The notes beneath the pieces were generated by a model. It saw only the letters and a program-made list of their open reading frames with translations, ran no database searches and was not told where the DNA came from. From positions 1,076 to 65,075 of IMG/VR virus record IMGVR_UViG_3300025886_000014: a DNA stretch of 64,000 nt; one strand, 5' to 3'. How positions within the stretch are numbered: the stretch's first letter is position 1; every line of letters begins with the position of its first letter. A program made the translations under genes and the position numbers. The DNA comes from a virus. Of this stretch, positions 27,232 through 42,799 are shown in pieces.

Positions 27232-28518
27232 CTATCCAGCAAATCTTGCTTTTGTTCTATCGTATGTAATTCCAGAAGTATATCTAGTAGCATTAGCATC
27301 AAAAAACATAATTCTCACAAATCCAGGGCCACCTTGATTAGTACTAGGTGCTACGCTTTGACCACTAGTTCCTTTTGATCCAGTTCCACCAAACCCATAT
27401 CCACCACCATTTGACTGTCTAGTGAAAAGATCATTAAAACCCTTCCCTCTTGATCCAATTCCACCACCATGTGTTGTGGTCACTTCTAATATCCAATCTG
27501 CTTGTGATACACGCCATCCAAGACCCTCTCCCCTAATATCATGAGAAATGCCTTCAGTGGTAGGAGAACCTGATGTTTGATATCCGGGCGCACCACCACC
27601 GCCAAAAATAGATGAACTATAATTAAAACTAGGACTAGTAGTTAATGTTGAGCCATTATTAACTAAACATGCTGATAAATATGAAGTTCCTCCCCAACCA
27701 CCAGCATAATGTAATTCTAATTTTGAGTTGTCATATATGGTAACTTTATTTCCAGTTCCAGGACCAAATGCATATCCAGATAAAGAATAACCTTGAGTTT
27801 CTATACTTCTAGTTCCACTATCAAATGTAGATACTCTATGAGTATTAGTGGATTTTGCAGCCCCACCTACTGTAAGTACATTGCTTCCATTTTTATAAAC
27901 GTAAGAATTTCCACCATCACTTGCATTACCACTAACTCCTTGAAATCCCCATTCACCACTATTTGATGATCCACCAAGTGCTTTACCGCCATTTCCAACT
28001 CTAATTGTAATTACATCGCCCTCAGTTACAGGAATTGGATGTGTTTGTGCATAATCGCCACCATTTCCACCAGCGGGTGCGTTAATGAATGAAGATGAAA
28101 TTCCACCACGACCAGACCAAGCCCAAGGTCCAATATAACCAGAAGCACCAGCACCTTGTATAAAAATTTTCATATGTGTAAATCCACAATGCTGTGGAAT
28201 TGTATATGTGTAATCAGATGTTGTTGTTTGTGTTGATGATGCGACAGTATATACAGCATCAAAATATGGTTTTATCATAAAATCACTTAAAGATATTTTG
28301 CCTGAAGATGGAACACCAGTACTATTAGATATTCCAGAGTTTATAATTAAATTCCCATCAGATTCTGCGACTAAACTACCACCTTTATAAAATTCCGATA
28401 AAGATACTGATCCAGCATCGCTAAATTGATTCTTGATATCAGAAAAACTAAATGAACTATCACCATCTAAGTGAGGATAATTGCTATGTAAACTTGTAGG
28501 TTTAAATGTTGTTGGCAT
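27232..28518 (-). CDS. Glycine-rich receptor-binding adhesin-like protein
   Basis: N-terminal SLSEFYKGG...GVPSSGKISLSDF, followed by many GGxG glycine-rich stretches. Lies directly downstream of a chaperone-bearing fibre, resembling the gp37-gp38 arrangement. Confidence 0.55.
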   Translation of the reverse strand: MPTTFKPTSLHSNYPHLDGDSSFSFSDIKNQFSDAGSVSLSEFYKGGSLVAESDGNLIINSGISNSTGVPSSGKISLSDFMIKPYFDAVYTVASSTQTTTSDYTYTIPQHCGFTHMKIFIQGAGASGYIGPWAWSGRGGISSSFINAPAGGNGGDYAQTHPIPVTEGDVITIRVGNGGKALGGSSNSGEWGFQGVSGNASDGGNSYVYKNGSNVLTVGGAAKSTNTHRVSTFDSGTRSIETQGYSLSGYAFGPGTGNKVTIYDNSKLELHYAGGWGGTSYLSACLVNNGSTLTTSPSFNYSSSIFGGGGAPGYQTSGSPTTEGISHDIRGEGLGWRVSQADWILEVTTTHGGGIGSRGKGFNDLFTRQSNGGGYGFGGTGSKGTSGQSVAPSTNQGGPGFVRIMFFDANATRYTSGITYDRTKARFAG

Positions 28519-29725
28519 TAGACTCTATCTTTTCCCTAAGATATTCAACATCTACTCTTAACTCATTTATTGCCTCTACAATAAGACCCATCATATTGCC
28601 ATAACGAATTGCTTTATTTTCACCATCAAATTCATAAACAACTTCTGGAAGAACTTCAGAAACTTCATCTGCCATAAGACCAGACATTTTTTCTTCTCTA
28701 CCTTTATAGTTAAATGTATATCCAGCCAATGTACCAACTTTATCAAGAGCATTATCAATACGTTCAATATTTTCTTTCAATTTCCTATCAGATGCACTAT
28801 TAAACGCTGTAATATCAGCATTTGATGTAATCGCACCATCAGCATGTAATGTTGATGAGAGAGATAACGAATGACCATTATCTAGTACATCAGACCTAAG
28901 ATATTTTGGATCAGTTATAGTATTAAGTATCAAAGAAGAGTCAACCCCAGCAGATGATCTTGCCAATACATACGCAGAATCAACTTGAGTTGATAGATTT
29001 GTTTCATCAATTAATTTGTGCCACGCCCCCCCATGAGAAAAATATCCCTTACCAGTTCCATGCACATGAGCAAACATACCATGATAAGTTGCTGCTGAAG
29101 GAAGATCGCCTTCTGTAGAATACATATTTGCATAAAGAGATTTGCCAGTTGTGATAATATTATTACTTCCCATATTAAGGTCAGCACTCGTAATATCACT
29201 TGTTCTTGCCGCTATATAATCACTATCAACATGGGTAGTTACTCTTGCGTTTGTATAATATAGGTTTGTTGAACCTTCAGTAATTTCATCAGTATTATCT
29301 TTTGTCAGAATACTTGCGTCTACATACGCTTTTACTGATTGCTGAGATGGTACGTGAATGGCACTGTTTGATGCCATCCCATCTTCATCAAGTAAATCGC
29401 TTGTTTTAAGACCATCATTAATACCATAACCTGCTAATGTAGTTGGTTTAAGTGTGATGTTTGAAAATGCTACAGTAGTAGGTTTTGTTAGAGTATTTAG
29501 AGTAGAACTATTTATTTTAGTGTAAATATAATTGGAATCTACAAGTGCTTGAACTCCGCTACTTGTCAAAGCCCCAGTATTATTGTAATGCTGTTCTAAG
29601 TTTGCCAAGGTAACTTTTGCGGTAGCATAACCACCAGATAAATTGGTTCCTGTTACTACCAAAAAATTTAGATTACTATCTAAATCACTACTTGTGGCAG
29701 TTGGTAAATCTACTATTTTGACCAT
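28502..29725 (-). CDS. Tail fibre with C-terminal intramolecular chaperone (peptidase S74-like)
   Basis: C-terminal SDRKLKENIERIDNALDKV..L.GYTFNYK...GLMADEV.EVLPEVV...IRYG.MMGLIVEAINEL. Confidence 0.8.
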   Translation of the reverse strand: MVKIVDLPTATSSDLDSNLNFLVVTGTNLSGGYATAKVTLANLEQHYNNTGALTSSGVQALVDSNYIYTKINSSTLNTLTKPTTVAFSNITLKPTTLAGYGINDGLKTSDLLDEDGMASNSAIHVPSQQSVKAYVDASILTKDNTDEITEGSTNLYYTNARVTTHVDSDYIAARTSDITSADLNMGSNNIITTGKSLYANMYSTEGDLPSAATYHGMFAHVHGTGKGYFSHGGAWHKLIDETNLSTQVDSAYVLARSSAGVDSSLILNTITDPKYLRSDVLDNGHSLSLSSTLHADGAITSNADITAFNSASDRKLKENIERIDNALDKVGTLAGYTFNYKGREEKMSGLMADEVSEVLPEVVYEFDGENKAIRYGNMMGLIVEAINELRVDVEYLREKIESNANNI

Positions 29726-29736
29726 CGTTTATCTTT

Positions 29737-30966
29737 CTATGCTATTATAAATGCTCTTACTTGGAGTTGCCATTTTGTTGCTGTTAATACACCAGTTCCC
29801 CCAGTATTTTTATCTTGATATATACCTGGCCCACTAGATGCAATTCTAAGAGTTACATTTGTAGCATCTACTACCGCACCGAACCCTTGTTCTGGACCGT
29901 CATTGTCCGTACTTGGATGTATATCAATAATATCATTTACAACATATCCACCCTGTGCGTCAATGCATTTAAGTCTATAAGTTATAATATCAGGTTCTAC
30001 ACCTAAACCATGAGTGAAAACATTTTGACCAGAATTTGAAATTCCGACATAAGAACTTACATACTTTTTTACTAGTTTGCCAGAAACGTCTGTGGATATT
30101 TGTCTTTTTACTTGTAAAGGAGTCATAATTAAATTATTTAAAAGACCACTATCTGCCTCAAAACTATCTGCAATCATATCGCCAGTAATTGAAGCACCAG
30201 ATAGTGCGCCACTAAATGTTCCAGTTGTTGCTGTAATTCCACCAGTAGATGTTATAGCCGCTGAATTAATAGTGTTAAATGTTACGCTAGATGTTGAATC
30301 AACTTCTTGACCAATAGATATAGAATCAGAACTTCCAATAGTAACACCAGTTCCACCCAAAGCATTAAAATTGTTTATTGATGCTAGAGTTGCCGCTGAT
30401 AACGTAAGGCCAATTTTACCATTAGAATCAAGGGTAATATCACTATCGGTACTAAATGATCCACGCGCTCTAGAATCTGTAAAATATAGATTAGGGCTTC
30501 CTTCTGGAACATGTGAAGTAGTAAACCCAACTTGAGAATCTTTTAAAAGACCATCCAGATTGTGGATTACTGGAATTCTTGCTTTATTAAAAACTCCAGT
30601 TGTTATTTTAGTTGTTGGTAGATTTGGAATTCTAGTAGTAGTAAATTGACCACTAGTAATTACACTTGCTGGTAGCGGATCAAGATGTGATGGACTTATT
30701 GAACTACAATTAAAAGAAAAAAGACCGCTATTGGAATCATAAGACAATGTAGTATGACTACCGTTACCACCTGCTACAAGACTTAATGCTGTAGTAACGT
30801 AAGTTGAACCAGAACTTGCTTTAATCTCATTAATTGCTTGAACCAAATCGGTTTTATTAGTTGTAGTGAGATTATCAGGTTCACCTACATATCCAGACAT
30901 AGTGTTTGTTGCATTACGCCAAGTTTCTATTTTATCAGTTAAGTTTACTGTAATTTTTCTAGTCAT
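29737..30966 (-). CDS. Tail fibre-like protein (paralog of 41377-42588)
   Basis: N-terminus TWRNATN.M..YVGEPDNLTTTNKTDLVQAINEI and IPxL.xxKITTG repeats. Late promoter immediately upstream. Confidence 0.65.
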   Translation of the reverse strand: MTRKITVNLTDKIETWRNATNTMSGYVGEPDNLTTTNKTDLVQAINEIKASSGSTYVTTALSLVAGGNGSHTTLSYDSNSGLFSFNCSSISPSHLDPLPASVITSGQFTTTRIPNLPTTKITTGVFNKARIPVIHNLDGLLKDSQVGFTTSHVPEGSPNLYFTDSRARGSFSTDSDITLDSNGKIGLTLSAATLASINNFNALGGTGVTIGSSDSISIGQEVDSTSSVTFNTINSAAITSTGGITATTGTFSGALSGASITGDMIADSFEADSGLLNNLIMTPLQVKRQISTDVSGKLVKKYVSSYVGISNSGQNVFTHGLGVEPDIITYRLKCIDAQGGYVVNDIIDIHPSTDNDGPEQGFGAVVDATNVTLRIASSGPGIYQDKNTGGTGVLTATKWQLQVRAFIIA

Positions 30967-30997
30967 ATGCTCATCTTTGCTATAGGTTGCTTATGTT

Positions 30998-31005
30998 TAT
31001 TTATA
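30998..31005 (-). promoter_or_regulatory. T4-type late promoter TATAAATA
   Basis: TATTTATA on + at 30998-31005, overlapping the stop codon of the last cassette gene and about 32 nt upstream of the ATG at 30966. Confidence 0.75.
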
Positions 31006-31447
31006 AGGTTTCTAAGGCTAGTTTAAACTCATCCTCATAATATTTTCTAACATCTGGAACCATTCCTTTCATTTTTAAAGGAAATTCTATATTTTTCAAT
31101 ATTTGATCATAAGTATCAATATCTAAATGATATTGAATAAAATGTGGATCGTTTTCCGCTAGTAGATATTTATCATTTAATAATTCAAAGAAATTTTCAT
31201 CAAAATCTTGAGATAACCAATATGCATAACATATAGCAACAAAATATGATTTTGCTGGTCTAATAGTTTCATCAACATATTCATTAAAGTGTAGTAAAGC
31301 ATCCCTTACAATATTTTCTTCACTCCATGTCACATCCATTTTATTCAAATCATCTGAATACTCTCTATTAAGTAAGTGATAAACTTGGGACGCTGTTCTC
31401 CATTTTCTCATACCAATCCAATAGCCCTTTATATCCGTTACATCCAT
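31001..31447 (-). CDS. Hypothetical protein of the radical SAM cassette (probable true start MRKWRT at 31411)
   Basis: ORF track. Overlaps the end of the upstream rSAM gene. No recognisable family. Confidence 0.6.
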   Translation of the reverse strand: MDVTDIKGYWIGMRKWRTASQVYHLLNREYSDDLNKMDVTWSEENIVRDALLHFNEYVDETIRPAKSYFVAICYAYWLSQDFDENFFELLNDKYLLAENDPHFIQYHLDIDTYDQILKNIEFPLKMKGMVPDVRKYYEDEFKLALETL

Positions 31448-32297
31448 TATCTAAATCCTTGACATATCGGTAATGTTCTGTTAAACAATTACCGAAATAT
31501 TTGCATGAAGCGCAAATCGGACTTATCATTTCTTCTTTTTCTTTTTCTGCCCAATCCAAGTAAGATTGAAAAGAATCCAACTCTTTAAAGTATTCCCTAT
31601 CGTGAACATCAAACTCCAATACTCCAAACTTGCCGTTAGGAGTAATGTAAACATGATCATCCGAAAATGCATTGTATAATCCACTAAAAGACTCCTCTAT
31701 CTTGTTTGCATTTACAAATTGAAAATCCATTTGATTTTCTAATTCCATCCACTGAATAACAAACTTTTCAAAATCTAAATGCGTCACAGTAAATGCATTT
31801 GCTTGATTAATAGAATATGGTTTAATCTCTACTGATTTAACAGCACCACACATATTCAATAATTTTATCATTTCATTTACATTCATCTTTAAAACTTGCG
31901 GTGATGCAAGAATAAGAACAGCAATCGGTACTGGACTCATCATCATATTCTGAAATACCAAATTTGATTTCTCTCTTGCTTCAAAATCGTAAGATACTGA
32001 TAGATAAACATCGTCATCAAAGAAACCATCATGCATCATAGAATAGTTTGTGTTGATATTTATTTTTTTACCATAATACTTTTTAATTGTATTTTTAACA
32101 TCATAAAAATAATTTTTCTTCATAGCACCAATTTCACCACCATATAGATCAACATGCTCTATATCTGGAATTTGTGAAAGTAATTCATCAAGTCTCTCAA
32201 TTGAAATTTTTTTCTGATCGCCTAATTGTTCTGAAGTAAGATAACAAAAATCACAGCGAAAATTACAAAAATAAGATGGATTTACAGATACAATCAT
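31368..32297 (-). CDS. Radical SAM protein with C-terminal Cys cluster (SPASM/twitch-like)
   Basis: CxxxCxxC in NPSYFCNFRCDFCY. C-terminal CASCKYFGNCLTEH...GCNG. Confidence 0.85.
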   Translation of the reverse strand: MIVSVNPSYFCNFRCDFCYLTSEQLGDQKKISIERLDELLSQIPDIEHVDLYGGEIGAMKKNYFYDVKNTIKKYYGKKININTNYSMMHDGFFDDDVYLSVSYDFEAREKSNLVFQNMMMSPVPIAVLILASPQVLKMNVNEMIKLLNMCGAVKSVEIKPYSINQANAFTVTHLDFEKFVIQWMELENQMDFQFVNANKIEESFSGLYNAFSDDHVYITPNGKFGVLEFDVHDREYFKELDSFQSYLDWAEKEKEEMISPICASCKYFGNCLTEHYRYVKDLDNGCNGYKGLLDWYEKMENSVPSLSLT

Positions 32298-33328
32298 GCA
32301 TATTCTCTTACATATTCAGTAACTTTAGTATCCATTCTATTTAAAGAGATTATATCTTTAGCCATAGATTTCATATGTTGACAGTGATCTTCAACCATGT
32401 TATGTTGTTTCAAATCTTTAATTGTTTTACGGCATCCATTACAAATTTCAAACATAGGACAGGTAAAACACGAATTTTTAAGACTCATTAAACTCAAATC
32501 ATTACTGAGAGGTGTCTCAAAACCCCCATTCATTTCATATTCAAAATCTATTGGTTTGTCAAAATCATCACCGAAAGAACCACAAGAATAGTAATCACCT
32601 TCTGGTTGAATATTACGAATGCCACTATCACAGTTTCTGGACTGAGGACATATGGTTGGTTTTTTTCTTAACCTATTTAACATTTGTTGAGTATTATGTT
32701 CCCAATCACTAAGTCCTGCTTTCCAAATTTGAATATATCTCTCATAAATTTTTGATAATCTATATGGTGCTGACTGAGAACCAGATGCCATAGCATAATT
32801 TACCTTACAAACAACATTCATCTTCTTAGCAAGTTGTACAGTCTGTATTACAGTATCTTCATTTTCATCCACAATTACCGCAATAAATGATGGTCTATAG
32901 CCTACATGCTCAAGCATCGCATCAGAACATTTCCAAAAATCTTCTTCTGTAAATTCACTGTAATCTCCCTTGAGCCTACCACCGCCATATTGAAATGAAG
33001 TCCCAACACCAATTCTATGATGATTAAAGAGTTCTGCCCATTTTTTTGGTTTCATTAAAAAAGGATACAAATTGGTTGTAAGGGATATTGTCGCTGGCAT
33101 ATCATGTTTATCTAAAAACTCTATTAATTTCCAATAGTAGTTTGGCCTCATCATTAAAGGATCACCACCATTTACGATGATAGTTTGCGTTTCAGGAAAT
33201 CTTTTAAGAAATTTGAATATCTTATTCAAATCAAGTACAGCAGTGTTATCCTCTTGAGTAATTTTAGAGGAAGAACAAAATGAACATTTAAAATTGCATA
33301 ATTCTGTTGGTTTGATAATTAAGTCCAT
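32294..33328 (-). CDS. Radical SAM/SPASM protein
   Basis: IIKPTELCNFKCSFCSS and NGGDPL. C-terminal CPQSRNC...YSCGSF...CFTCPMFEICNGC...HC. Confidence 0.9.
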   Translation of the reverse strand: MDLIIKPTELCNFKCSFCSSSKITQEDNTAVLDLNKIFKFLKRFPETQTIIVNGGDPLMMRPNYYWKLIEFLDKHDMPATISLTTNLYPFLMKPKKWAELFNHHRIGVGTSFQYGGGRLKGDYSEFTEEDFWKCSDAMLEHVGYRPSFIAVIVDENEDTVIQTVQLAKKMNVVCKVNYAMASGSQSAPYRLSKIYERYIQIWKAGLSDWEHNTQQMLNRLRKKPTICPQSRNCDSGIRNIQPEGDYYSCGSFGDDFDKPIDFEYEMNGGFETPLSNDLSLMSLKNSCFTCPMFEICNGCRKTIKDLKQHNMVEDHCQHMKSMAKDIISLNRMDTKVTEYVREYA

Positions 33329-33903
33329 GGAGAATTCTTTATATTAAAACCAAAATTCATTGTGATTCTTTGCACATTGGGTTTTCTAAAATCCTCAACT
33401 CTATGTTGAAAATTTAAATCTTGACTACCTAATATTAAATCATATTTTTTTGGTAAGTGATAACAAGTGACACGTTTATTTTGTCTCATATTTCGGAACA
33501 TTATTTCACCACCGACTCCTTGTTCCATATCAGTGAAATATAGTAAAAAGAAAACATTTGCACCTTCTCTTAAATCATTATGCCAAGAACTAGAACCATC
33601 ACATGCTCCATTCCAAATATATGAATATATTAATTTTTTGCTCTCATAACAATCGTCATACTTTGATAAGTATGTATCATACAATAAATCAGCAGTTTTC
33701 TTTATTTTGTTTCGCATACCATTCAAATGATAATTCCAACAAATGCTATAACTTTTACAATCATCACCATCATTTAACCATTTTATTTTTGGAATATTAT
33801 CACTACTCATATTTAACCACTTTAGTTTTGGCATAGTATCATTGATATGAATAAACATATTTTTATTATTTTCCATAAGATATCCTTGGTCTTTCATTTC
33901 CAT
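33319..33903 (-). CDS. 2OG-Fe(II) oxygenase
   Basis: WHND (HxD), LYFTD..GGEIMFR, FQHRVE (distal His), RITMNFGF (2OG-binding Arg). Confidence 0.8.
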   Translation of the reverse strand: MEMKDQGYLMENNKNMFIHINDTMPKLKWLNMSSDNIPKIKWLNDGDDCKSYSICWNYHLNGMRNKIKKTADLLYDTYLSKYDDCYESKKLIYSYIWNGACDGSSSWHNDLREGANVFFLLYFTDMEQGVGGEIMFRNMRQNKRVTCYHLPKKYDLILGSQDLNFQHRVEDFRKPNVQRITMNFGFNIKNSPWT

Positions 33904-34466
33904 GGAGATTCCTTTACTTTAAATCTAAAAAGCATTGTTATTCTTTCTTGCTTCAATTCTCTTGTATGCTCAACTCTATGCTGAAACTTTAAATCATCAC
34001 CTACACTTCCCATTACTATATCATATTTTTTAGGTAGATGAAAAGCAGTTATTCTTTTATTTTGTTTCATATTTCTGTACATTATCTCACCACCATTATT
34101 CGGTTCTGAGTCTGTAAAATACAAATTAAATTGTAAGTTGCCACCTTCAGTATCATGATGCCACTCACACGAACCAGTGTCCGTCCCATTCCACATAGTA
34201 TAATAATCCAAGTGTTTTTCGGTTTCCCACGGCAAGTAGGTTTCCCAAAGTAAATCGGCAGTTTTTAGCATCTTACTTTTCATGGAGTGGAAATAATAAT
34301 TCCACGCGACGCTTTGCCATCTGTCAGATTTATCAGAATTACTTCTCTTTAAGTATAACCATTTTAATTTTGGTAATGTATCTTTTATATGAATAAACAT
34401 ATCAGGATTATTTTCAATAAAACATCCAGAATTTTTATCAATATTCATTTTATTCCCAGCCCACAC
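33894..34466 (-). CDS. 2OG-Fe(II) oxygenase, tandem paralog (probable start MNIDK at 34448)
   Basis: WHHD, LYFTD..GGEIMYR, FQHRVEH, RITM. Clearly similar to the neighbouring gene throughout. Confidence 0.8.
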   Translation of the reverse strand: MWAGNKMNIDKNSGCFIENNPDMFIHIKDTLPKLKWLYLKRSNSDKSDRWQSVAWNYYFHSMKSKMLKTADLLWETYLPWETEKHLDYYTMWNGTDTGSCEWHHDTEGGNLQFNLYFTDSEPNNGGEIMYRNMKQNKRITAFHLPKKYDIVMGSVGDDLKFQHRVEHTRELKQERITMLFRFKVKESPWK

Positions 34467-34980
34467 TTACAGTCATTCTTGGTTTAGAGCCAAAATAAGG
34501 TCTAATACAATGTACCATAGAACTATTAAAAACTACTAACCTACCCACTTTTGGTTGTATTCTAGTCTTATTTTTTGGATATTGAAAAATATCAAGAGAA
34601 TCATAAATATCCAACTCACCACCTTGCCAACCATTATTATCTATATCTATAAAAAATAATGTAATGATTTTAGACTCTGTTCCATCATGATGTGGTTCCC
34701 AAATCATATTTTCATTATTATCTTTTTCATACTTGACAATTTTTATCAAATGTGATATAGCAATTTTTTTTACATTTGAATCTTTCACCATCGCAATAGT
34801 TTTTGCTTTATTCAGATTTGGAAAGTCATCCATATTATCTTTAATATTTATCGCCATATTTTTTTGCATGTTAAATCTTGGCAAATCCTCAATAGAGGGA
34901 TTGGCAAAAGAAAACTTGCTTTGTATTCTTTCAAGTTCTTTTTTATTCAAAAAATCATCATAAATTTCTACAGAATTCAT
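34450..34980 (-). CDS. 2OG-Fe(II) oxygenase (prolyl-4-hydroxylase-like)
   Basis: WEPHHD, WQGGEL, PKVGRLVVFNS..VHCIRP, RMTVS. Confidence 0.85.
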   Translation of the reverse strand: MNSVEIYDDFLNKKELERIQSKFSFANPSIEDLPRFNMQKNMAINIKDNMDDFPNLNKAKTIAMVKDSNVKKIAISHLIKIVKYEKDNNENMIWEPHHDGTESKIITLFFIDIDNNGWQGGELDIYDSLDIFQYPKNKTRIQPKVGRLVVFNSSMVHCIRPYFGSKPRMTVSVGWE

Positions 34981-36625
34981 CTAATCTTTCCTTTATCATT
35001 TCTTCATTTTTATTTAATAATATTTTCATTTCATTGACAATATCTTTACCTTTAAAGCGTCCCACATCAAACTTATCTATGCTATGTGGATTTTTATCAT
35101 AAAATATATTTCTTATTAATTCTTTGTAAACAAAAAACATAGGAATATCATTCAATATATTCCACAATTCTTTTGCTACCTCGGAAACATTTTCATATGT
35201 AGTATATTCACTTATAAAACTTAAACCTATATGTGGTGTAAACAAATTCATTATAAACATTTCTAGATATTCTTCAAACGTATATGAAAAACACTCAATT
35301 ATAGTATCATATTCATATGCAACATCCCCATATATTGGATTTACTTCAACATCATCCCATTTTCCGCTATAGTTACCATCAAATTGTGTTAATACTTTTG
35401 AAGTTTTTATTTTATACTTTTCTTGATATTCTTTACTGGCAGTTTCAGTCGCTGGTAAAACCATGTAAGGATATCTAGTGTCTGCCCATACGTCAAGACC
35501 TTTCCATTCTTCCCAATCTTTTCCTTCATTATACCCAACTCTATAGTATACTTTAAATTCCTCGTAAAAATCTTTTAGTGTAGATCCCGGCATCGCTAAA
35601 ATTAATTCTAAGTCTAACCATAATTCTTTTTCTTTAAAATTATTCCATTTATTAGTTAAATGATCCACCAACTCATAAGTTTCCTCAACATTAAGGTCTC
35701 TCCTGTTCGCAATTTTTCTCGCTTCTGGTGATATTGATTGTAAACTGATACTGATAACTTGACGAGTAATATCATGCTCAATCATAAAATCAAGCATTTC
35801 TTTTTTCTGTTCCAATTTTAAAGTTTTTAATACCGATAGATTTTCACCAATTTGAACCCCATTATCCACCATGTGCATCATCATTTCTCTATCACGTTCT
35901 TTAAACATTCCTGTATTAGCATCACACAAATCAATATGTACACCTTTGAACCGCCCTATAAATTCCATTTCATCCTTTATCACAGCCATAGGTTTTTTTA
36001 GAACTTTTGTTCCAGTACCGCCACCCCACTCACAATAAGAACACTTAAATGGGCATCCTCTAGTACTTTCATATATCAATGTTATTCGCTCATATAAGTC
36101 TATATTTTTAATGAAATGCTTATATTCTTTGGTAAAATAATCTTCACATCTCTTATATACATTCGTATGTCCAAATGGAAGAGGAATTTTTAAAGAACTA
36201 CCCAAATAAAATGGAATCTTTTTCTTATCAACAGAATCCTCTAAATACATATCAAGAAAGTATTGAACGAATATTTCTCCTGGAGCAAGAGGGTCTGCAA
36301 CATAGTCATAATCTTTTATTATATCAGGGTCTTGTTGAGGACCACCCATAACTACTATGGTATCTGAGTCAAGGCCATTTCGTATCCTTTGGTTAATTTT
36401 ATAATTCCAAACATAATTGGTAAAAAATACAATAGAACACCCTTTAACATTATCCAAACAATCTTGTATTGTAACTTCATTCCATTTGAATATTGGCTCC
36501 ACCCAAGTAACTTTTTCTGGATATTTACCGTAATCTTCATAAAAACATTTAAAAAGCATCCAATGATAATTAAATTCGGCCCTTGAAGGTATTCCTGTTG
36601 GATTTATATAACCTACTTTAATCAC
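34958..36625 (-). CDS. Radical SAM protein with N-terminal cobalamin-binding-like domain (class B methylase-like)
   Basis: YESTRGCPFKCSYCEWGG. N-terminal FTNYVWN...VVMGGPQ resembles the B12-binding domain. C-terminal ELILAMPG.T motif. Confidence 0.75.
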   Translation of the reverse strand: MIKVGYINPTGIPSRAEFNYHWMLFKCFYEDYGKYPEKVTWVEPIFKWNEVTIQDCLDNVKGCSIVFFTNYVWNYKINQRIRNGLDSDTIVVMGGPQQDPDIIKDYDYVADPLAPGEIFVQYFLDMYLEDSVDKKKIPFYLGSSLKIPLPFGHTNVYKRCEDYFTKEYKHFIKNIDLYERITLIYESTRGCPFKCSYCEWGGGTGTKVLKKPMAVIKDEMEFIGRFKGVHIDLCDANTGMFKERDREMMMHMVDNGVQIGENLSVLKTLKLEQKKEMLDFMIEHDITRQVISISLQSISPEARKIANRRDLNVEETYELVDHLTNKWNNFKEKELWLDLELILAMPGSTLKDFYEEFKVYYRVGYNEGKDWEEWKGLDVWADTRYPYMVLPATETASKEYQEKYKIKTSKVLTQFDGNYSGKWDDVEVNPIYGDVAYEYDTIIECFSYTFEEYLEMFIMNLFTPHIGLSFISEYTTYENVSEVAKELWNILNDIPMFFVYKELIRNIFYDKNPHSIDKFDVGRFKGKDIVNEMKILLNKNEEMIKERLDEFCRNL

Positions 36626-37256
36626 CTTTATAGAACTCCATATTCATAAATTGTATCTTTGTGAACCCTTTTAAAACCTTAGACGTATATGGAGTTTCCA
36701 TTATAGCACTGTCTGGATGGGTAGACATTTTTTTCATTTGAGTGTATAGTGTTTTGGCTGTAGGAACGTAAATAGGTCTATTCTCAATTTCAGTTTTGCA
36801 AAATTTCACCATGATTTTATAAAAGTCTATTTCTTGCCTTCTGGTTAAGCAATCTCTATAAATTCCATTTATTTGAATATTTGACATTATTGTATAATTT
36901 TTAGTTTTCTCTGTACCAATCCACCCTAACTCATAATCATTATTCACTGCTGTTTTGGGTGACCCAGTAAATTGAGTAGTGTAATCTTCTATCATAGATT
37001 TACTATTAACTTCAGATAATAAATTACTTGATAATGGAACACTAAAAACGTACACTTCACTACTCAAAAAATTATCTAAAAAATGAATACATGGGGGTAA
37101 TTCTATATCAACTGAATAATCAAATACTGTACGGCACACATTATAGTCTATATCAATTTCTTTTATTGGAGTAATTAATCTTTTCGCTCTTGTTGGAAAC
37201 CTATTTATAAAAGATTGACTTATTGGAGATTTATCACCATTTCCATAAAAAAACAT
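36618..37256 (-). CDS. Hypothetical protein of the radical SAM cassette
   Basis: ORF track, 212 aa, tightly packed between rSAM genes. No family recognised. Confidence 0.6.
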   Translation of the reverse strand: MFFYGNGDKSPISQSFINRFPTRAKRLITPIKEIDIDYNVCRTVFDYSVDIELPPCIHFLDNFLSSEVYVFSVPLSSNLLSEVNSKSMIEDYTTQFTGSPKTAVNNDYELGWIGTEKTKNYTIMSNIQINGIYRDCLTRRQEIDFYKIMVKFCKTEIENRPIYVPTAKTLYTQMKKMSTHPDSAIMETPYTSKVLKGFTKIQFMNMEFYKGD

Positions 37257-37257
37257 C

Positions 37258-38298
37258 TCATCTTAATCCTTGATTTTCAATATATCTATGTGTCATCTTA
37301 TAAACACATTCATCAAAAATTTCCTCTGCATATTTGTAATCGTGTGCCATGAAACACCCAAGAGTACATCTATGGAAATATTCACAAGTAGAGCAATTGT
37401 ACTTCTCAAGAAATGCTTTCTCAATAGGCTTATTATTGGCCTTTTGTATATCAGTTTTATACATTGCTTTATCTCTTGGCTCTTGAACAAGATTTCCACA
37501 CAAACACATAGTCCCATCCTCAAGAACTAATTTAGATGATCTGCATGAAACAACATTACGTTCATTTTCTATCCAAGAACGAATAGGTTCAATCTTAGGA
37601 TAATTATCTATAAAATGTGTAAAAATATCGTAATGTTCTTTATCTGTCGGCATACTTCTTTCTGCTTGACAATCGGGCATGTAGTAATCAGCATAAACCT
37701 TAACACCTTTATGATATAGATCATGCATAAAATCTTTTGGATCAGTAAGCCAATATCTTATATTTGATTTAGTTAGAAGAACACCTATACCTTCTAAATC
37801 ATCCCAAAAATCATATACATTCTCTTTGAAAATTTCTAAGTTTGGTTTGTTAAATCTACCTCTAGGATCATATGAGGTTACAAGTTTTGTAGCACATCCC
37901 ATATCCCTACACGCTTTTAATATTTCTCTCACATAATCCTTTTTACTAATAACAAGATTAGTTACCCAATTAATACTCACTTCATCAAAGTTATATTTTT
38001 TTCCTAAGTTTACTATTCCTTGAGCAAGAGAAATGTAGTCATTCTTCAATTTTTCATCAAAAATTTCATCGGCAAATATTTCGCCACCCATAATATTTAA
38101 AACAACACGTTTTCTCATTTCTTTCTCAAAGAATTTTTCTATTGATTCTAATTTATCTAAAACTGTATCAATACCCACAATGTTGTCATGGTCTTGCCAG
38201 CAAAATGGGCAAGATAGATTACAAAACTCAAACAAATGAATTGTATATTCTTGCTGCTTATCTCTTTTATCTCTTAAAATAAAATCTACTAAATCCAA
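37258..38298 (-). CDS. Radical SAM protein with C-terminal Cys cluster (SPASM-like)
   Basis: IHLFEFCNLSCPFCWQ and MGGEI. C-terminal CRSS...MCLCGN...CSTCEYFHRCTLGCF...EC. Confidence 0.88.
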   Translation of the reverse strand: MDLVDFILRDKRDKQQEYTIHLFEFCNLSCPFCWQDHDNIVGIDTVLDKLESIEKFFEKEMRKRVVLNIMGGEIFADEIFDEKLKNDYISLAQGIVNLGKKYNFDEVSINWVTNLVISKKDYVREILKACRDMGCATKLVTSYDPRGRFNKPNLEIFKENVYDFWDDLEGIGVLLTKSNIRYWLTDPKDFMHDLYHKGVKVYADYYMPDCQAERSMPTDKEHYDIFTHFIDNYPKIEPIRSWIENERNVVSCRSSKLVLEDGTMCLCGNLVQEPRDKAMYKTDIQKANNKPIEKAFLEKYNCSTCEYFHRCTLGCFMAHDYKYAEEIFDECVYKMTHRYIENQGLR

Positions 38299-38952
38299 TC
38301 AAACTTCTCCTGCACCAACTCCCCAAGTTAATAGGAAAAGTGGATTTTTTTCATAGGACCAATAATCAAATAAACCCTTTCCATTAAACATATATTCATT
38401 AAAATATTTAGAATAATAGGTCAAGTTTTTTTCATCTAATCCATTGTAGTAATAATAAAAATCTTCATGTTTTAATAAAGATACAAAATTAATACCTTTT
38501 ATATCATCAGTATCATCTTCTTCATGTGATATTACCCAATCTTTCATCTCATCATCTTGGATAATATACATATTATAAAGTGTCAATGAATCTAACTTTT
38601 TAATCCAAGTATCAATGACTTCTTTGTTATCATCAATGAAATCTTGATAGCAACCTAAACATTCTAAAGATAGATTTTTTTTCACCAAAAGAACCTCAAT
38701 AATAAATTCTTCTAAAACTTTAATATTTAATATTTGTGGAAACTGAAGATATATTTTTGCAAGGTTCTCTAAATCATTTCCTTCAACTTTAATATCACAA
38801 GGTAACTCTAAGTTGCTTAAATAAACGAGTAATTTCTCACCTTGTAACTCACTATTTTCATAATCAATAATAAAATTAATACTATCATCAGAAAAATATT
38901 TTTGTAAATCATCAATACCTAGTGGTGCAGTCACTGTAACATAATTATTCAT
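38299..38952 (-). CDS. Hypothetical acidic protein of the radical SAM cassette
   Basis: ORF track, 217 aa, directly downstream of the CHSN-repeat gene. No family recognised. Confidence 0.6.
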   Translation of the reverse strand: MNNYVTVTAPLGIDDLQKYFSDDSINFIIDYENSELQGEKLLVYLSNLELPCDIKVEGNDLENLAKIYLQFPQILNIKVLEEFIIEVLLVKKNLSLECLGCYQDFIDDNKEVIDTWIKKLDSLTLYNMYIIQDDEMKDWVISHEEDDTDDIKGINFVSLLKHEDFYYYYNGLDEKNLTYYSKYFNEYMFNGKGLFDYWSYEKNPLFLLTWGVGAGEV

Positions 38953-38959
38953 AATAAAA

Positions 38960-39787
38960 TTATCTCCTATTTCTTGATGAATGGCAATTAGAGTGGCAAT
39001 TAGAATGGCATACAGATTCAGTATATCCTGCTATATTTCCATCTATAGCAACAGTTTTCCATGCCTCATATAGATTATTGAATAATGTTTCCATATCACC
39101 ATCATCAATTAAATCTCCAGCGACTATCATTGAATGATCAACATCAGAAGAATCAATGGTGAAACTATGTCTAGGAGTTAAAACGCCCACTCCACTAACA
39201 CTTATTGCTTTACCTATAACAGCACCACTTCGTAAACTAACTGCATATTTTTGTGTCGCTGATGTACAAGCCGATTGAGCGTCTGAACGTAAGGTCTCTG
39301 CTTCTTGTTTTGTGGAAGGTTTTCCACCAATACCATATGAATTCCAATTTGTAAAAAACTCTGAGATAAATCCACCAAAAGTAACACCAGCCCCAGCAGA
39401 TACTTCGTTGTCTAAAGCATCTCTCCATTCACAAGCAAAGTTTTTTTCCTTTTCTGCATTTTCGGTAGATGCCGTATTGCGTGACGGTATTGGTATATTT
39501 CCACCTGGAATACCAGTTACAGTTCTTGTGGCAGTAAATTTTCTAACTCTAGTATATTGGTTAATATCCTTTAATAGAACAGCAAAAATATTTGATGCTG
39601 TTATTGGCCCATCCAACAAATCAGGATTTGTTGTCACACCAGTTGTATTTCCATGAAAATAACTTGCTACTGATGCAAATGGTAGATTATCATCACCAAA
39701 CACAATAGCATCATTAATTTTATCAGTCACAAACTGTCTGTATTTTGTAATTACAGGGTTTTCTGTAATAGGGTCTGATATTGCCAT
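38960..39787 (-). CDS. Protein with C-terminal (CHSN)n Cys/His repeat; candidate substrate of the cassette
   Basis: Ends VCHSNCHSNCHSSRNRR*. A 12-nt DNA repeat is visible at about 38978-39010. GGAG SD upstream. Confidence 0.7.
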   Translation of the reverse strand: MAISDPITENPVITKYRQFVTDKINDAIVFGDDNLPFASVASYFHGNTTGVTTNPDLLDGPITASNIFAVLLKDINQYTRVRKFTATRTVTGIPGGNIPIPSRNTASTENAEKEKNFACEWRDALDNEVSAGAGVTFGGFISEFFTNWNSYGIGGKPSTKQEAETLRSDAQSACTSATQKYAVSLRSGAVIGKAISVSGVGVLTPRHSFTIDSSDVDHSMIVAGDLIDDGDMETLFNNLYEAWKTVAIDGNIAGYTESVCHSNCHSNCHSSRNRR

Positions 39788-39797
39788 TCTTTATCTC

Positions 39798-40817
39798 CTA
39801 GACATTCTTTGCCAATTCCATCATTAAACTTTTAGGTGCGCCACACACATCACCTTCCCATCCTAATTGGTGACAATCACCACCACAATATTTTGCAACA
39901 GGACAAGAAAGGCAATTGGGGTTTCTCATTTTTTCTTCAATAATAGTTCGTATTCTTCTAGGACTATTTATAAGAGTTTTAATAGAATCATCCAAAGTTC
40001 CGAATTGAAATTCTGGTGCTGAATTCGGACAACCACTTATTGTACCATCTCCATTTATTGTAAATAATTTTGTTTCACAATCTCTACAAAAAGTGCCACA
40101 CGTAGTAAGAGTTTTCTCAAACTTAGCATATACATTTTCAAGAAAGTCATTTTCAAACCAATCTCGCGCACCATATTTTTCACTTTGTTGATGCATTTTC
40201 AAAAAATAAGCATCTAATTCTTTATTAGATGGAAATATCTCTGATGCTTCTCTAGCATTACCATTATTAGTTAATCTCTCTAAGGATACTTCTTGAACCC
40301 CTAATCTTCTACACCATCTCAATAATACAATAGGGTCTTTTTCTAAAGTATCTTTAGTAAGACTAATAAACAAACGTATAGTTACACCATCTGCTAAAAG
40401 AGACTTGACGTTTTTATGCCATAAGTTATATTGTCTTTGATTATCAAATCTTATCTTACGGTCCCATGAAGTTCCTAACCTATTCCTAAGTGGGCCTTTT
40501 ATAAATTCTCTATGCTGATCTTTTAATTTATATACTAAATTGGTTGTGGCTCCCCAACTCATATTATCCCAAAGACCATCACAAGCATCATACACTTTTC
40601 TCATTTGCCCTACAGGTACAAGAAATGGTTCGCCACCATGAAACTCTAAATGAATACCATCATCCTTCGCAGGTTTTTCTTCACGAAATCTATGTATCCA
40701 ATCAACTATCTTATCAGTATTCCAATAAATTTTAGCACCGTTGCTACCAGAGGTAAAACAGTGCTTACAGTTTAATTGACAAGTTTCTGTGGTTTTAAGA
40801 TATACTGACCAAAACAC
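39798..40817 (-). CDS. Radical SAM/SPASM protein
   Basis: YLKTTETCQLNCKHCF and FHGGEPFL. C-terminal CGTFCRDC...ISGCPN...CLSCPVAKYCGGDC...C. Confidence 0.9.
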   Translation of the reverse strand: MFWSVYLKTTETCQLNCKHCFTSGSNGAKIYWNTDKIVDWIHRFREEKPAKDDGIHLEFHGGEPFLVPVGQMRKVYDACDGLWDNMSWGATTNLVYKLKDQHREFIKGPLRNRLGTSWDRKIRFDNQRQYNLWHKNVKSLLADGVTIRLFISLTKDTLEKDPIVLLRWCRRLGVQEVSLERLTNNGNAREASEIFPSNKELDAYFLKMHQQSEKYGARDWFENDFLENVYAKFEKTLTTCGTFCRDCETKLFTINGDGTISGCPNSAPEFQFGTLDDSIKTLINSPRRIRTIIEEKMRNPNCLSCPVAKYCGGDCHQLGWEGDVCGAPKSLMMELAKNV

Positions 40818-41313
40818 TATTCATTTTATCCTCTATAAATTTTTCTAAGCCAAAACTCAAAGTAAGTGCTTCATGTTCATTAAATGCTTGGTGAGGGGTA
40901 TTCGCAGGAATATGTAGTGTTGCACCTTCCTTCAAAGTAAATACTGGTTCACCACCCATAGTATGACCTTCCATTGCTATCGTTTTCATTCCTTCACAAC
41001 AATATATAACGACATTATCTGGATCAGTATGTTTTTTGAATGAATGAGCATTTTTTTCAGCATAAAATAAATGACATGTTATTGGGCCATTATGATCATA
41101 CATATCTTCTAGTTCTAAACAATAAGAAAAAATCTCCGAGTTATATGCTTCCATTCTTTCAATTTTTATTGAATTTGTATTTTTATTTGCAAGAGTATCC
41201 GCAAAATTTTTCATTAGATGTTCTCTGCCATTTTCATCTATTGCATAAACCATATTTTGTTCATACGCAAGATCACTCGCAATTATTTTTAAGAATTGAC
41301 TCTTAGTAAGCAT
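40795..41313 (-). CDS. JmjC/cupin-like Fe(II) oxygenase
   Basis: HLFY...SFKKHTD (HxD)...GATLHIPANTPHQA...LTLSFG, matching the cupin-4/JmjC pattern. AAGGA SD upstream. Confidence 0.7.
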   Translation of the reverse strand: MLTKSQFLKIIASDLAYEQNMVYAIDENGREHLMKNFADTLANKNTNSIKIERMEAYNSEIFSYCLELEDMYDHNGPITCHLFYAEKNAHSFKKHTDPDNVVIYCCEGMKTIAMEGHTMGGEPVFTLKEGATLHIPANTPHQAFNEHEALTLSFGLEKFIEDKMNSVLVSIS

Positions 41314-41339
41314 AACAAAATCCTTTAATGACTAAGACT

Positions 41340-41368
41340 ATTATAAACTACATAGCCTAAAATGTCAA
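41340..41368 (-). promoter_or_regulatory. Consensus sigma70 promoter (TTGACA-N17-TATAAT) upstream of the radical SAM cassette
   Basis: On +, TGTCAA at 41363-41368 and ATTATA at 41340-41345 with an exact 17-nt spacer, in the 63-nt intergenic gap. Confidence 0.85.
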
Positions 41369-41376
41369 TATGTAAT

Positions 41377-42588
41377 TTAGAGTTTAAGGACACACTCAAT
41401 CATTTTTTCACCCTCAAAATCATTACTTTCAAGAGCGAGACCTACTAATTCTGCACCATTAAACTCTGAACTAGCAACACCATCACGCCAAGTATATACT
41501 GCCTCACCTTTTCTAATTTGACCATTTACTCTTACGGGAACCCTACCTTTAAGTGCAAGTGCTTGTCCTTCTGCTTCTGCATTCATAAGAAATGCTGGCT
41601 CTGCTGAAACGACTCCAATTGGAATACCAGAAGTGGTACATCTTGTAGTTTCACCAGTTGGCCCAAAATTTACCATCATAACAGTGCCTATTGGATAATC
41701 TTCATCTGTGGTATATTTTTCCGCAAGGTCAGCAAAATTAGCAGATGTAGCATTACCATGAAAAGTTGTTGCGTACATATTTGCGTATTTAAACGATGAA
41801 CTACCCACACTGTAAGAGTTATCTGTGTCTGGAACAATATGCCCACCGTGATTTATTTGACCATTAAATGTTGATGTAACAGAAAGAGCGGAAGTCCCAA
41901 CAGTAACCGTATTGTAAAAAGTACTAGTTCCATTATATACTCTTGTACCAGTGTATGATGTGGAAACATTATTTCTTACAAGAGATGGGTCCATTGCTTC
42001 TAATGGTATTGTAGTACCATCAGTCACTATTTTACTAGCAGGAATATCAGGTATTCTTCCTATTAGAAAAGTTCCCCTATTAATTTTACTAGTATGTAAA
42101 GATGGAATACGATCACTATCAAATTGCCCAGCAGTGGTTTGATTTGCAGATAGATATGGTAATCTAGCAGTTGCTAATGTTCCAGTTGTTATAACCCCAG
42201 CATCTATTGCTGGTATTAATGATGGATTAATAGTTCCAGTTGTTAATTTTCCAGCATCTAAATTAGGAATATCGTTTGCCGTGAGTGGATTACATGTGAA
42301 TGTAAATACCCCACCACCAATACCTGCTGAATCTGTATAAGATAAACTTGAATATGTACCAGACCCACCAGTTGATAATGCTAATGCAGTTCTTGCTAAT
42401 CCTTGCACTTCACCATTAACAGCAAATTTACTTTCAATTGAATTTACTGCACCGACAATACTTCCACTATCAGTTGTATTTAAATCATCTAAATCACCTA
42501 TATAAGTTGCAGTAAGGTTTGTTTTCATTCTCCAAGCATTTACTGAATTACTGAGATCAACATTTTCTAATCTAGCCATTAGTGTCAC
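41377..42588 (-). CDS. Tail fibre-like protein with C-terminal chaperone-like domain (probable start MARLEN at 42579)
   Basis: Contains 18-aa IPxLxAxKIxxG repeats. C-terminal ADLAEKY....YPIGTV...IGVVSAEPAFLMN...ALKGRVPVRVNG.I.KG (peptidase G2-type chaperone-like). Confidence 0.7.
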   Translation of the reverse strand: MTLMARLENVDLSNSVNAWRMKTNLTATYIGDLDDLNTTDSGSIVGAVNSIESKFAVNGEVQGLARTALALSTGGSGTYSSLSYTDSAGIGGGVFTFTCNPLTANDIPNLDAGKLTTGTINPSLIPAIDAGVITTGTLATARLPYLSANQTTAGQFDSDRIPSLHTSKINRGTFLIGRIPDIPASKIVTDGTTIPLEAMDPSLVRNNVSTSYTGTRVYNGTSTFYNTVTVGTSALSVTSTFNGQINHGGHIVPDTDNSYSVGSSSFKYANMYATTFHGNATSANFADLAEKYTTDEDYPIGTVMMVNFGPTGETTRCTTSGIPIGVVSAEPAFLMNAEAEGQALALKGRVPVRVNGQIRKGEAVYTWRDGVASSEFNGAELVGLALESNDFEGEKMIECVLKL

Positions 42589-42799
42589 CTAACTTTCTGG
42601 AAATTTCTACAAGCAGATTTTTCATATCCGCTACTTCTGATTTTAATACTTGAAATTCTTCTTTTTCTTCTCGCATTTTTTTCTTTCTTGCCTTCGCTTT
42701 TTCAATTTCTACAAGATCACTATTAATTATAGCACCAGATTCTAAATCTTTGACATAATTTTTTTCACCTTGAATTTTAGAAAATAACATATTAATCAC
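42572..42799 (-). CDS. Small coiled-coil hypothetical protein
   Basis: ORF track. KDLESGAIINSD followed by a basic/acidic coiled coil. Lies directly after the VrlC-like gene. Confidence 0.6.
   Translation of the reverse strand: MINMLFSKIQGEKNYVKDLESGAIINSDLVEIEKAKARKKKMREEKEEFQVLKSEVADMKNLLVEISRKLGDTNG

Follow-up and report, generated by a model that had tools for sequence, protein, structure and literature searches.

The closest characterised analogue of the gene cassette described here is the bacterial antiphage HXS system, in which HxsB, HxsC and HxsD mature the His-x-Ser-repeat protein HxsA, leaving a +8 Da shift of unresolved chemistry (Li et al., Nat Commun 2026; PMC13128918). We analysed 64,000 nucleotides of viral DNA (positions 1,076 to 65,075 of IMG/VR virus record IMGVR_UViG_3300025886_000014; hereafter, the window). 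The DNA stems from a marine T4-like phage, represented by a 66-kb viral contig. On its minus strand, at 31001-41313, 13 same-direction open reading frames (ORFs) overlap or are separated by gaps of at most about 10 nt. They encode five radical S-adenosylmethionine (SAM) proteins (rSAM-A to rSAM-D and B12r), three 2-oxoglutarate (2OG)-Fe(II) oxygenases (ox176, ox190 and ox194), a JmjC-like cupin, three unknown proteins (u217, u212 and u148) and a 275-aa protein, CHt, whose C-terminus reads CHSNCHSNCHSSRNRR. The order from 5′ to 3′ is cupin, rSAM-A, CHt, u217, rSAM-B, u212, B12r, ox176, ox190, ox194, rSAM-C, rSAM-D and u148. We suggest, from locus comparisons, that the cassette is a dedicated post-translational maturation system for the CHt tail and that CHt is a fibre or host-recognition component, a reading to which we give a probability of about 0.6.

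Known radical-SAM maturation systems and the cassette

The resemblance to HXS is one of logic, not of homology or context. In HXS too, several radical-SAM enzymes and small non-catalytic helpers mature a full-size protein instead of a short peptide, and the His-x-Ser repeats of HxsA, rich in basic residues, share the H-x-S element with CHt (PMC13128918). However, the C-H-x-S repeats of CHt stand at the extreme C-terminus, with an invariant Cys and an RxRR end, and the cassette combines four radical-SAM enzymes with Fe(II) oxygenases amid fibre genes of phages and predatory bacteria, not in defence islands. Against the HXS families (TIGR03976-TIGR03979), the scores were 33.6 bits for HxsB (cut-off 370) and 31.7 bits for HxsC (cut-off 267.9). 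CHt did not have the traits of an HxsA-type effector: it had no NCBIfam or Pfam match, no signal sequence by inspection, and no detected peptidoglycan-binding domain.

The triceptides are a second point of comparison, among ribosomally synthesised peptides with post-translational modifications (RiPPs). As in the cassette, the enzymes involved (XyeB, GrrM/OscB, and the His-specific HaaB and HtkB) belong to the SPASM type, and three-residue cyclophanes form at an aromatic-x-x motif, the ring being crosslinked to the C-beta of the third residue (PMC11499958). The H-x-S/N/A of CHt, present three times per tail, fits this motif, as a resemblance only (PMC11499958). Models of cyclophane enzymes (XyeB, GrrM/OscB, YhhB and AmcB) gave 19-30 bits against cut-offs of 310-450. 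CHt differs from triceptide precursors in being a folded structural-module protein of 120-450 aa, with no leader or associated protease, and in having an invariant Cys before every His.

Ranthipeptide and sactipeptide maturases (PapB/freyrasin, CteB/SCIFF) and the CXXX-repeat system also pair SPASM enzymes with Cys at a four-residue period, and the same Cys spacing in CHt recalls these thioether-forming systems. rSAM-A aligned end to end with the PapB model, weakly: the family score was 42.7 bits against 340 (NF047865), and position i+4 in the tail is Cys or Arg, never Asp or Glu. The CXXX-repeat maturase model TIGR04115 gave 37.9 bits against 350, over residues 4-66 only. These systems have no counterpart to the invariant His and the C-terminal RxRR of CHt.

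Finally, QhpD (acting on the gamma-subunit of quinohemoprotein amine dehydrogenase, QHNDH) and anaerobic sulfatase-maturating enzymes (anSME) are radical-SAM/SPASM enzymes that modify a protein staying in a larger assembly, and QhpD works with an oxygenase to build crosslinks. The scores were 21.6 bits against 453 for QhpD, and 38.8-46.7 bits against 349 for anSME (TIGR03942), with no sulfatase gene or motif in the cassette. The substrate motifs of both are unlike CHt, and a dehydrogenase or sulfatase partner is missing.

Every NCBIfam match of the cassette radical-SAM enzymes to the characterised families compared (DynA, DarE, PapB, anSME, XyeB, GrrM/OscB, AmcB, HxsB/C, QhpD and CXXX-repeat maturases) scored far under the family cut-off. 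By these scores the enzymes fit no known pathway, a close fit to one having been named as refuting by a first-pass annotation, made from the letters of the window; by sequence, they appear to form SPASM-type families of their own. Genome papers on FLC6, S13, RP12/RP31 and pelagimyophages merely list cupin, radical-SAM and 2OG annotations, a comparative survey of jumbo phages leaves the cassette enzymes unmentioned, and our full-text literature searches returned no description of the tail family or its enzyme link. These searches and the scores above agree with the remark in the same annotation that no characterised pathway of this composition is known. We take the cassette to be a widespread protein-maturation system, so far undescribed, with ties to the fibre modules of both phages and predatory bacteria.

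The annotation's RiPP-like label has to be changed. Rather than a leader/core peptide, CHt represents a family of folded proteins of 120-450 aa, and the cassette has no conserved protease or exporter. Thus, protein maturation is a better name than RiPP pathway.

The Cys-His tail and the enzymes that travel with it

The gene for CHt (38960-39787, minus strand) is a core gene of the cassette and the predicted substrate gene, and the 16-residue tail encoded at 38963-39010 is the predicted modification target. The gene after rSAM-A ends in CHxxCHxxCHxxRxRR-stop in all 27 IMG/VR loci that extend past rSAM-A, and in the phages Atu_ph07, RSL2, RSF1 and DT01 (31/31). Among 30 non-redundant rSAM-A neighbours, the three C-H-x-x units and the R-x-R-R end are invariant. 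A co-occurrence check had been proposed by the first-pass annotation, and it came out positive: the enzymes and the tailed protein are found together in the 31 informative loci, which span four phage lineages, and also in bacteria, where the gene order is shuffled. This supports the proposal that they form a functional unit.

A tblastn search with CHt against cultured phages gave no match; CHt is too divergent or low-complexity for BLAST, so profile and DNA-pattern searches were needed. We built a profile of the last 75 residues from the window and IMG/VR rows only, and compared it to 1.84 billion cluster representatives, of which 647 matched at E <= 1e-3 and 163 at E <= 1e-10. Among the listed matches that earlier searches had not seen, 137/148 end in the exact tail motif. 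The consensus of the tail is V-C-H-[SA]-S-C-H-S-S-C-H-[GS]-S-R-G-R-R, and position 4 of the repeat is Ser in 80-92%, otherwise mostly Asn. The window CHt, with Asn in two repeats, is an uncommon variant. No Cys is present outside the tail in 81 of 117 full-length members.

The tail is conserved at the protein level and not as a DNA repeat: among 184 distinct tail DNAs, synonymous variation is free at every invariant Cys, His and Arg codon, and only one DNA has three identical 12-nt units. The rest of CHt consists of conserved N- and C-terminal blocks flanking a variable insert (a Gly_rich_2 domain in some members), and the family ranges from 120 to 450 aa. Two kinds of unusual members were observed. 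Some (L035:10001-11362 and P0111; 436-453 aa) are fused to Gly_rich_2 (PF21722) and keep the same tail, and two from Bdellovibrionota (L069:864-1433 and L077:156-764) have four C-H-x-S repeats instead of three.

The AF2 model of CHt is a confident globular alpha/beta fold (pLDDT, the per-residue confidence, 82; pTM, the overall one, 0.81), with the last nine tail residues probably disordered (pLDDT < 50). That of u217, the product of the next gene, reached a pLDDT of 86.7. Fold searches with both models (Foldseek PDB, VIA-align wide, BFVD and AFDB clusters) found no relative beyond their own families. The best Foldseek PDB hits had E-values of 0.4-0.5, the best VIA-align wide Z-scores were 5.4 for CHt (the helical insert only) and 4.4 for u217, and the matches in BFVD and AFDB clusters all came from the proteins' own families. 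With no informative match, no function can be read from these folds.

The association also holds when starting from the tail. We ran a degenerate DNA pattern of the tail on 185,579 species genomes and on IMG/VR. In the species genomes 47 stretches matched; 37 were true tail ORFs, and 26 of these were in Bdellovibrionota. Most of these 8-kb loci contain homologues of rSAM-A to D, u217, the cupin, u148, a 2OG oxygenase or the B12-type radical-SAM protein beside the tail gene. Their gene order and orientation vary, unlike the phage arrangement, which points to functional linkage rather than inherited synteny. In IMG/VR the pattern found at least 120 stretches, with true tails in 79 of the 80 loci returned. 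When a CHt locus had no enzymes, rSAM-C was elsewhere on the same contig in four of the five contigs tested.

The Bdellovibrionota enzymes are 40-55% identical to those of the window (rSAM-A 40-42%, rSAM-C 52-55%). On a 1.29-Mb contig of a Halobacteriovoraceae genome (loci L213/L214; G002:C1:288000-327999), an island of about 11 kb holds the full enzyme set on two divergent strands. It is flanked by genes for a serine dehydratase, an Mrp/NUBPL ATPase, an SLT transglycosylase and a 413-aa Peptidase_S74 fibre protein, and also adjoins one for a 512-aa unknown protein. A prophage origin of the Bdellovibrionota loci was considered and rejected on this one island, with its housekeeping and S74 flanks and no phage hallmark in the 10 flanking proteins scanned. 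Of the 301 Bdellovibrionota genomes sampled, CHt was present in 9; the occurrence of the island is therefore sporadic, and it is probably mobile. Thus, describing the system as phage-encoded, as was done at first, covers only part of its range, since it is also on Bdellovibrionota chromosomes.

Other loci in bacterial or archaeal bins were noted. L049, from a binned Rickettsiales metagenome-assembled genome (MAG), and L086, from a binned Methanobacteriota archaeon MAG, contain the phage-type cassette, L049 together with VrlC and fib403 genes, and probably are phage contigs mis-binned into MAGs. They are examples of several 'bacterial' matches that look like phage contigs binned in this way. 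In another Bdellovibrionota locus, a 2355-aa RCC1-repeat/Big_2 surface-type protein (L211:11866-18933, minus strand) is encoded between the radical-SAM genes and u217/CHt.

Among cultured phages, a nucleotide search with the whole cassette gave no match. At the protein level (tblastn), rSAM-A and rSAM-C each retrieved the identical set of 15 records, with 38-59% identity, from Atu_ph07, Sinorhizobium phage Phosso, Ralstonia phages RSL2, RSF1, FLC4 and RsoM3USA, Burkholderia phages FLC6, FLC8 and S13, and Pseudomonas phage pPa_SNUABM_DT01. Identity to the jumbo-phage orthologues was 47-50% for rSAM-A (38% in DT01) and 53-59% for rSAM-C. The order cupin, rSAM-A, CHt, u217, rSAM-B ... rSAM-C, rSAM-D is retained in Atu_ph07, RSL2, RSF1 and DT01. 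In IMG/VR, the rSAM-A search retrieved 30 loci with 61-99% identity and the same gene order, and CHt lies between rSAM-A and u217 in nearly all phage cassette loci.

Conservation is far higher for the enzymes than for the structural genes beside them: in loci L010-L021, rSAM-A and rSAM-C are 83-86% and rSAM-D 75% identical to the window, compared to 39% for the adjoining VrlC. All 13 genes that were first proposed as one unit are present in the window, but only seven or eight of them belong to the core. From the locus comparison, we would assign the cupin, rSAM-A, CHt, u217, rSAM-B, rSAM-C and rSAM-D to this core, with u148 as a frequent component. The B12-type radical-SAM protein, the 2OG oxygenases, u212 and extra radical-SAM paralogues would be lineage-specific accessories. 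B12r is found in most marine loci, in L035 and in some Bdellovibrionota, and is absent from Atu_ph07, RSL2 and DT01. RSF1 and DT01 carry 2OG oxygenases and u148, and DT01 has six radical-SAM genes. Within the cassettes of phiKZ-like Ralstonia phages we also observed dihydrofolate reductase (DHFR) genes (L002:15042-15578 and L034:18673-19789), and in RSF1 an HNH endonuclease gene.

Fibre linkage and competing explanations

The gene immediately upstream of the cassette (41377-42588, minus strand) encodes fib403, a 403-aa fibre protein whose residues 252-388 match PHROG tail-fibre families. Its C-terminal domain of about 125 aa (residues ~278-403; motif ADLAE.Y ... GR.PV ... KG) has no Pfam family. 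It terminates 97 of 102 fibre proteins, which range from 92 to 2742 aa, and CHt genes come next in nearly every case. Of the 25 CHt loci whose flanks were long enough, 19 contain it. A second, common architecture has twin CHt genes. In 14 of the 18 such loci (L087, L112, L120, L125, L145, L149, L152, L159, L161, L163 and L164 are of this kind), a fibre gene with the fib403 domain is directly followed by two tandem small CHt genes (124-140 aa), and the other four contain two larger CHt genes (172-309 aa). In L130 and L154, both of the twin architecture, the enzymes lie some kilobases off. Both a twin pair (L164) and a cassette CHt (L023) occur on one 151-kb contig. CHt probably associates with fibres ending in this domain, which may be its docking site.

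The virion proteome of Agrobacterium phage Atu_ph07 bears on this. It includes gp170, with eight unique peptides and 35% coverage, in bands 1-9 and mostly in band 1 (PMC6102473). The 31.89-kDa mass of gp170 fits the CHt homologue of this phage. The proteome also includes gp176 and none of gp164-169, gp171 and gp172 (PMC6102473); in our comparison gp176 is a fib403-domain protein (E = 2e-38).

Transcription may be timed before assembly. In the 63-nt gap ahead of the cassette lies a sigma-70-type promoter, TTGACA-17-TATAAT (41340-41368, minus strand). It is the only 12/12 match in 28000-43500 (15.5 kb) and stands inside a late structural region. In relatives with cupin identities as low as 45% (L003-L009, L022, L008) the two hexamers are conserved while their spacers have diverged; more distant relatives have near-consensus variants, such as TTTACA in L010 and L016. 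This conservation suggests that unmodified host RNA polymerase transcribes the cassette before late assembly. The late-promoter motif TATAAATA was not enriched in the window (13 found, 13.6 expected), so its copies inside the cassette carry no weight.

Comparative genomics supports, with good confidence, CHt as the putative cassette substrate; the covalent modification of its tail, the chemistry and the role at the fibre we infer. Expression from the sigma-70-type promoter would let the enzymes act ahead of late assembly. Their substrate would be the tail of a folded, body-variable CHt, (Cys-His-x-Ser/Asn) three times and then Arg-x-Arg-Arg. The four SPASM-type enzymes would take hydrogen atoms from tail residues to form intramolecular crosslinks, most plausibly three-residue His-to-Ser/Asn C-beta cyclophanes in each H-x-S unit, thioethers of the flanking Cys, or both. 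Hydroxylation of the tail may be the work of the JmjC-like cupin and the 2OG oxygenases, and methylation that of the B12-type enzyme, with u217 and u148 as possible non-catalytic helpers. The product would be a rigid, basic, possibly metal-binding knob on a host-contact protein.

According to the general view, virion proteins mature through folding, proteolysis and, occasionally, autocatalytic crosslinking. The same core in unrelated phages and in predatory bacteria points to an enzymatic finishing step for a host-contact protein. More tentatively, at least four unrelated phage lineages and Bdellovibrionota could share a pathway of novel chemistry that builds a crosslinked, possibly metal-binding Cys/His knob on a prey-contact fibre protein. 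If true, a set of oxygen-sensitive radical enzymes dedicated to a single fibre-module protein would add a new layer to phage assembly and host recognition, and radical-SAM chemistry would for the first time be seen to finish a structural protein of the virion. Marine pelagimyophage-like phages carry the system in abundance, and its occurrence in predatory bacteria hints at a common way of attacking Gram-negative envelopes. With its four distinct SPASM enzymes and invariant 16-residue tail, the cassette is also a promising place to look for new peptide-crosslinking chemistry. Since cultivable jumbo phages that infect Agrobacterium, Ralstonia, Burkholderia, Sinorhizobium and Pseudomonas carry it, the proposal is directly testable.

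Several points weigh against this reading. The far sub-threshold matches to all characterised maturases mean that the chemistry cannot be assigned. Neither CHt nor u217 has a structural relative by which its place in a fibre could be judged, and the bacterial CHt proteins have no signal peptide at their inspected N-termini. The Atu_ph07 'virion' sample was purified by polyethylene glycol only and also contained clearly non-structural proteins such as ribonucleotide reductase, topoisomerase and terminase; moreover, the loading buffer was without reductant, so the abundance of gp170 in the top band may reflect disulfides (PMC6102473).

The strongest competitor, although unlikely, is that the Cys3His3 tail is a plain metal site (Fe, Zn, Ni or Fe-S), for example on the fibre axis, that stays unmodified, and that the enzymes act on other fibre proteins or on a small molecule. 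Cys/His pairs at a fixed four-residue spacing are classic metal ligands, phage fibre tips such as T4 gp37 and gp12 use His-coordinated metal ions, and the tail alone is predicted to be disordered. However, a metal site leaves unexplained why four SPASM enzymes, the cupin and u217 travel with CHt through four lineages and shuffled bacterial loci, and why CHt is placed between rSAM-A and u217 in nearly every phage cassette. Nor does it account for the residue at position 4, a strongly conserved Ser/Asn that is no metal ligand.

We give somewhat less credit to CHt as a carrier whose modified tail is cleaved off during infection as a diffusible peptide or cofactor, in the manner of pyrroloquinoline quinone, mycofactocin or a RiPP antibiotic. 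The enzyme set does resemble RiPP tailoring clusters, and the modified residues would be at the extreme C-terminus, as in PqqA and MftA. On the other hand, the cassette has no conserved protease, transporter or immunity gene, and in place of a leader CHt has a body with a conserved fold (120-450 aa), which contains conserved blocks in its N- and C-terminal parts. Tryptic peptides of gp170 were present in virion preparations and CHt genes come after fibre genes, both at odds with a released product.

A phage counterpart of HXS defence, in which a matured basic-tailed protein binds DNA or the envelope and excludes superinfection or counters a host HXS, is less probable still. The C-H-x-S repeats contain His-Xaa-Ser, the tail ends in basic RGRR, and an early-type promoter reads the cassette; in HXS, two radical-SAM enzymes and a small helper mature a repeat protein whose basic repeats bind DNA (PMC13128918). 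Nevertheless, scores of 32-34 bits are far from the HxsB/HxsC cut-offs of 268-370, CHt has no HxsA match, signal peptide or peptidoglycan-binding domain, and consistent linkage was observed with fibre genes rather than with defence islands.

That the enzymes are auxiliary metabolic or nucleic-acid-modification genes (QueE, NrdG, MoaA, anSME-like or DNA hypermodification) unrelated to CHt is highly improbable: despite weak N-terminal matches to MoaA, NrdG, viperin and anSME models, one record that labels an orthologue MoaA, and DHFR genes interleaved in RSL2 and RSF1, each match is far under its cut-off and covers the generic radical-SAM core only, the partner genes of those pathways are absent, and co-occurrence with CHt is essentially complete.

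Cassette components and setting

ORFs and family searches bore out the first-pass inventory of 13 co-oriented, packed genes (five radical-SAM proteins, three 2OG oxygenases, a cupin, three unknowns and the tailed protein), and homologue alignments showed that all the enzymes retain their catalytic motifs. All five radical-SAM proteins have CX3CX2C, conserved in 27-113 orthologues each, which places them in the radical SAM superfamily. Three of them passed the PF04055 cut-off in the Pfam search (rSAM-C with 41.1 bits, B12r with 36.4 and rSAM-D with 33.2), and rSAM-A and rSAM-B scored under it; these two matched phrog_1802 (radical SAM; 2e-61 and 2e-41, respectively). Sequence searches of the PDB with rSAM-A, rSAM-C and the cupin gave no useful match.

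The four SPASM-type enzymes keep CX3CX2C and 4-9 C-terminal Cys across 63-113 orthologues each, so the C-terminal Cys clusters noticed at first reading in four of these proteins are real conserved features. rSAM-A (339 aa, core; 39798-40817, minus strand, as are all genes below) passes TIGR04085 SPASM with 35.1 bits (cut-off 27), and its C13/C17/C20 and eight C-terminal Cys are conserved in 113 homologues. rSAM-B (346 aa, core; 37258-38298) has a SPASM-like Cys set, with C26/C30/C33 and six C-terminal Cys conserved in 90 homologues. rSAM-C (344 aa; 32294-33328) is a radical-SAM/SPASM protein and the best conserved of the core. One IMG/VR contig has an rSAM-C homologue with one in-frame TGA (G304:C1:21410-22372), maybe a pseudogene, a sequencing error or recoding. 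rSAM-D (309 aa, core; 31368-32297) has a single C-terminal set of four Cys, with C11/C15/C18 and C262, C265, C271 and C286 conserved in 63 homologues. The C-terminal Cys retained (8-9 in rSAM-A and rSAM-C, six in rSAM-B, four in rSAM-D) agree with SPASM or twitch domains, 7-8 Cys being the number for SPASM; rSAM-D is by its sequence a putative twitch-like or partial SPASM protein.

The accessory B12r (555 aa; 34958-36625) is a B12-type radical-SAM protein whose core matches KedN5, of the B12-dependent radical-SAM methyltransferase family, weakly (1e-23; 83 bits, cut-off 700). A B12-binding domain was not detected in it by the Pfam search. At the same position in L035, a 521-aa cassette gene product bears the B12-binding domain PF02310.

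The cupin (172 aa, core; 40795-41313) is a JmjC-like Fe(II) oxygenase that passes both Cupin_2 (28.2 bits, cut-off 27.2) and JmjC_2 (27.3 bits, cut-off 22). H95, D97, K110 and H141 are conserved in 84 homologues, and H95, D97 and H141 give the HxD/E...H motif of the JmjC/cupin group; orthologues are present in Atu_ph07, RSL2, RSF1, DT01 and Bdellovibrionota. The group to which JmjC-like cupins belong is one of hydroxylases acting on protein His, Arg, Asn or Lys residues.

The three oxygenases are accessories. ox176 (176 aa; 34450-34980) passes PF13640 with 32.3 bits and has H98, H157 and R168 conserved in its family. ox190 (190 aa; 33894-34466) and ox194 (194 aa; 33319-33903) are 2OG-Fe(II) oxygenase-like tandem paralogues with 51% identity. 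The former scores under the PF13640 cut-off (20.8 bits) and the latter has no Pfam match; in ox194, H108, D110, H167 and R179 are conserved among 71 homologues, which occur in RSF1 and Bdellovibrionota. The PF13640 score of ox176 and the conserved residues of ox176 and ox194 fit the 2OG-Fe(II) superfamily, which has an HxD...H triad and a 2OG-binding Arg/Lys.

Regarding the unknown proteins, u217 (217 aa, core; 38299-38952; phrog_20767) is encoded directly downstream of CHt in every lineage. Its family has more than 167 clusters, none with a name or a Pfam domain, and no catalytic-type residues are conserved among its homologues. With a confident model that has no relatives, u217 is probably a helper or scaffold. 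u212 (212 aa; 36618-37256) is a clade-specific accessory with no family match, found only in the closest marine loci. u148 (148 aa; 31001-31447; phrog_20737) has no match in Pfam or NCBIfam, and its homologues occur in DT01, RSF1 and Bdellovibrionota. ESM Atlas gave no usable match for u217 or u148.

The tail-fibre setting proposed at first reading was borne out by fibre genes on both sides and by the CHt-fibre linkage. Upstream are genes for a VrlC/DUF4815 baseplate protein (1444 aa), a 75-aa virion protein and fib403; downstream are the fibre paralogue fib409 and then a 407-aa fibre with a Peptidase_S74 chaperone domain. The window VrlC has less than 33% identity to its nearest cultured relatives, which include a Pelagibacter myophage. 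In pelagimyophages a 'host recognition cluster' is located downstream of VrlC, and the window cassette occupies the corresponding position. The fibre genes bracketing the cassette (29737-30966 and 41377-42588, minus strand) encode proteins that are 33% identical over their N-terminal ~135-160 aa and have different C-terminal domains.

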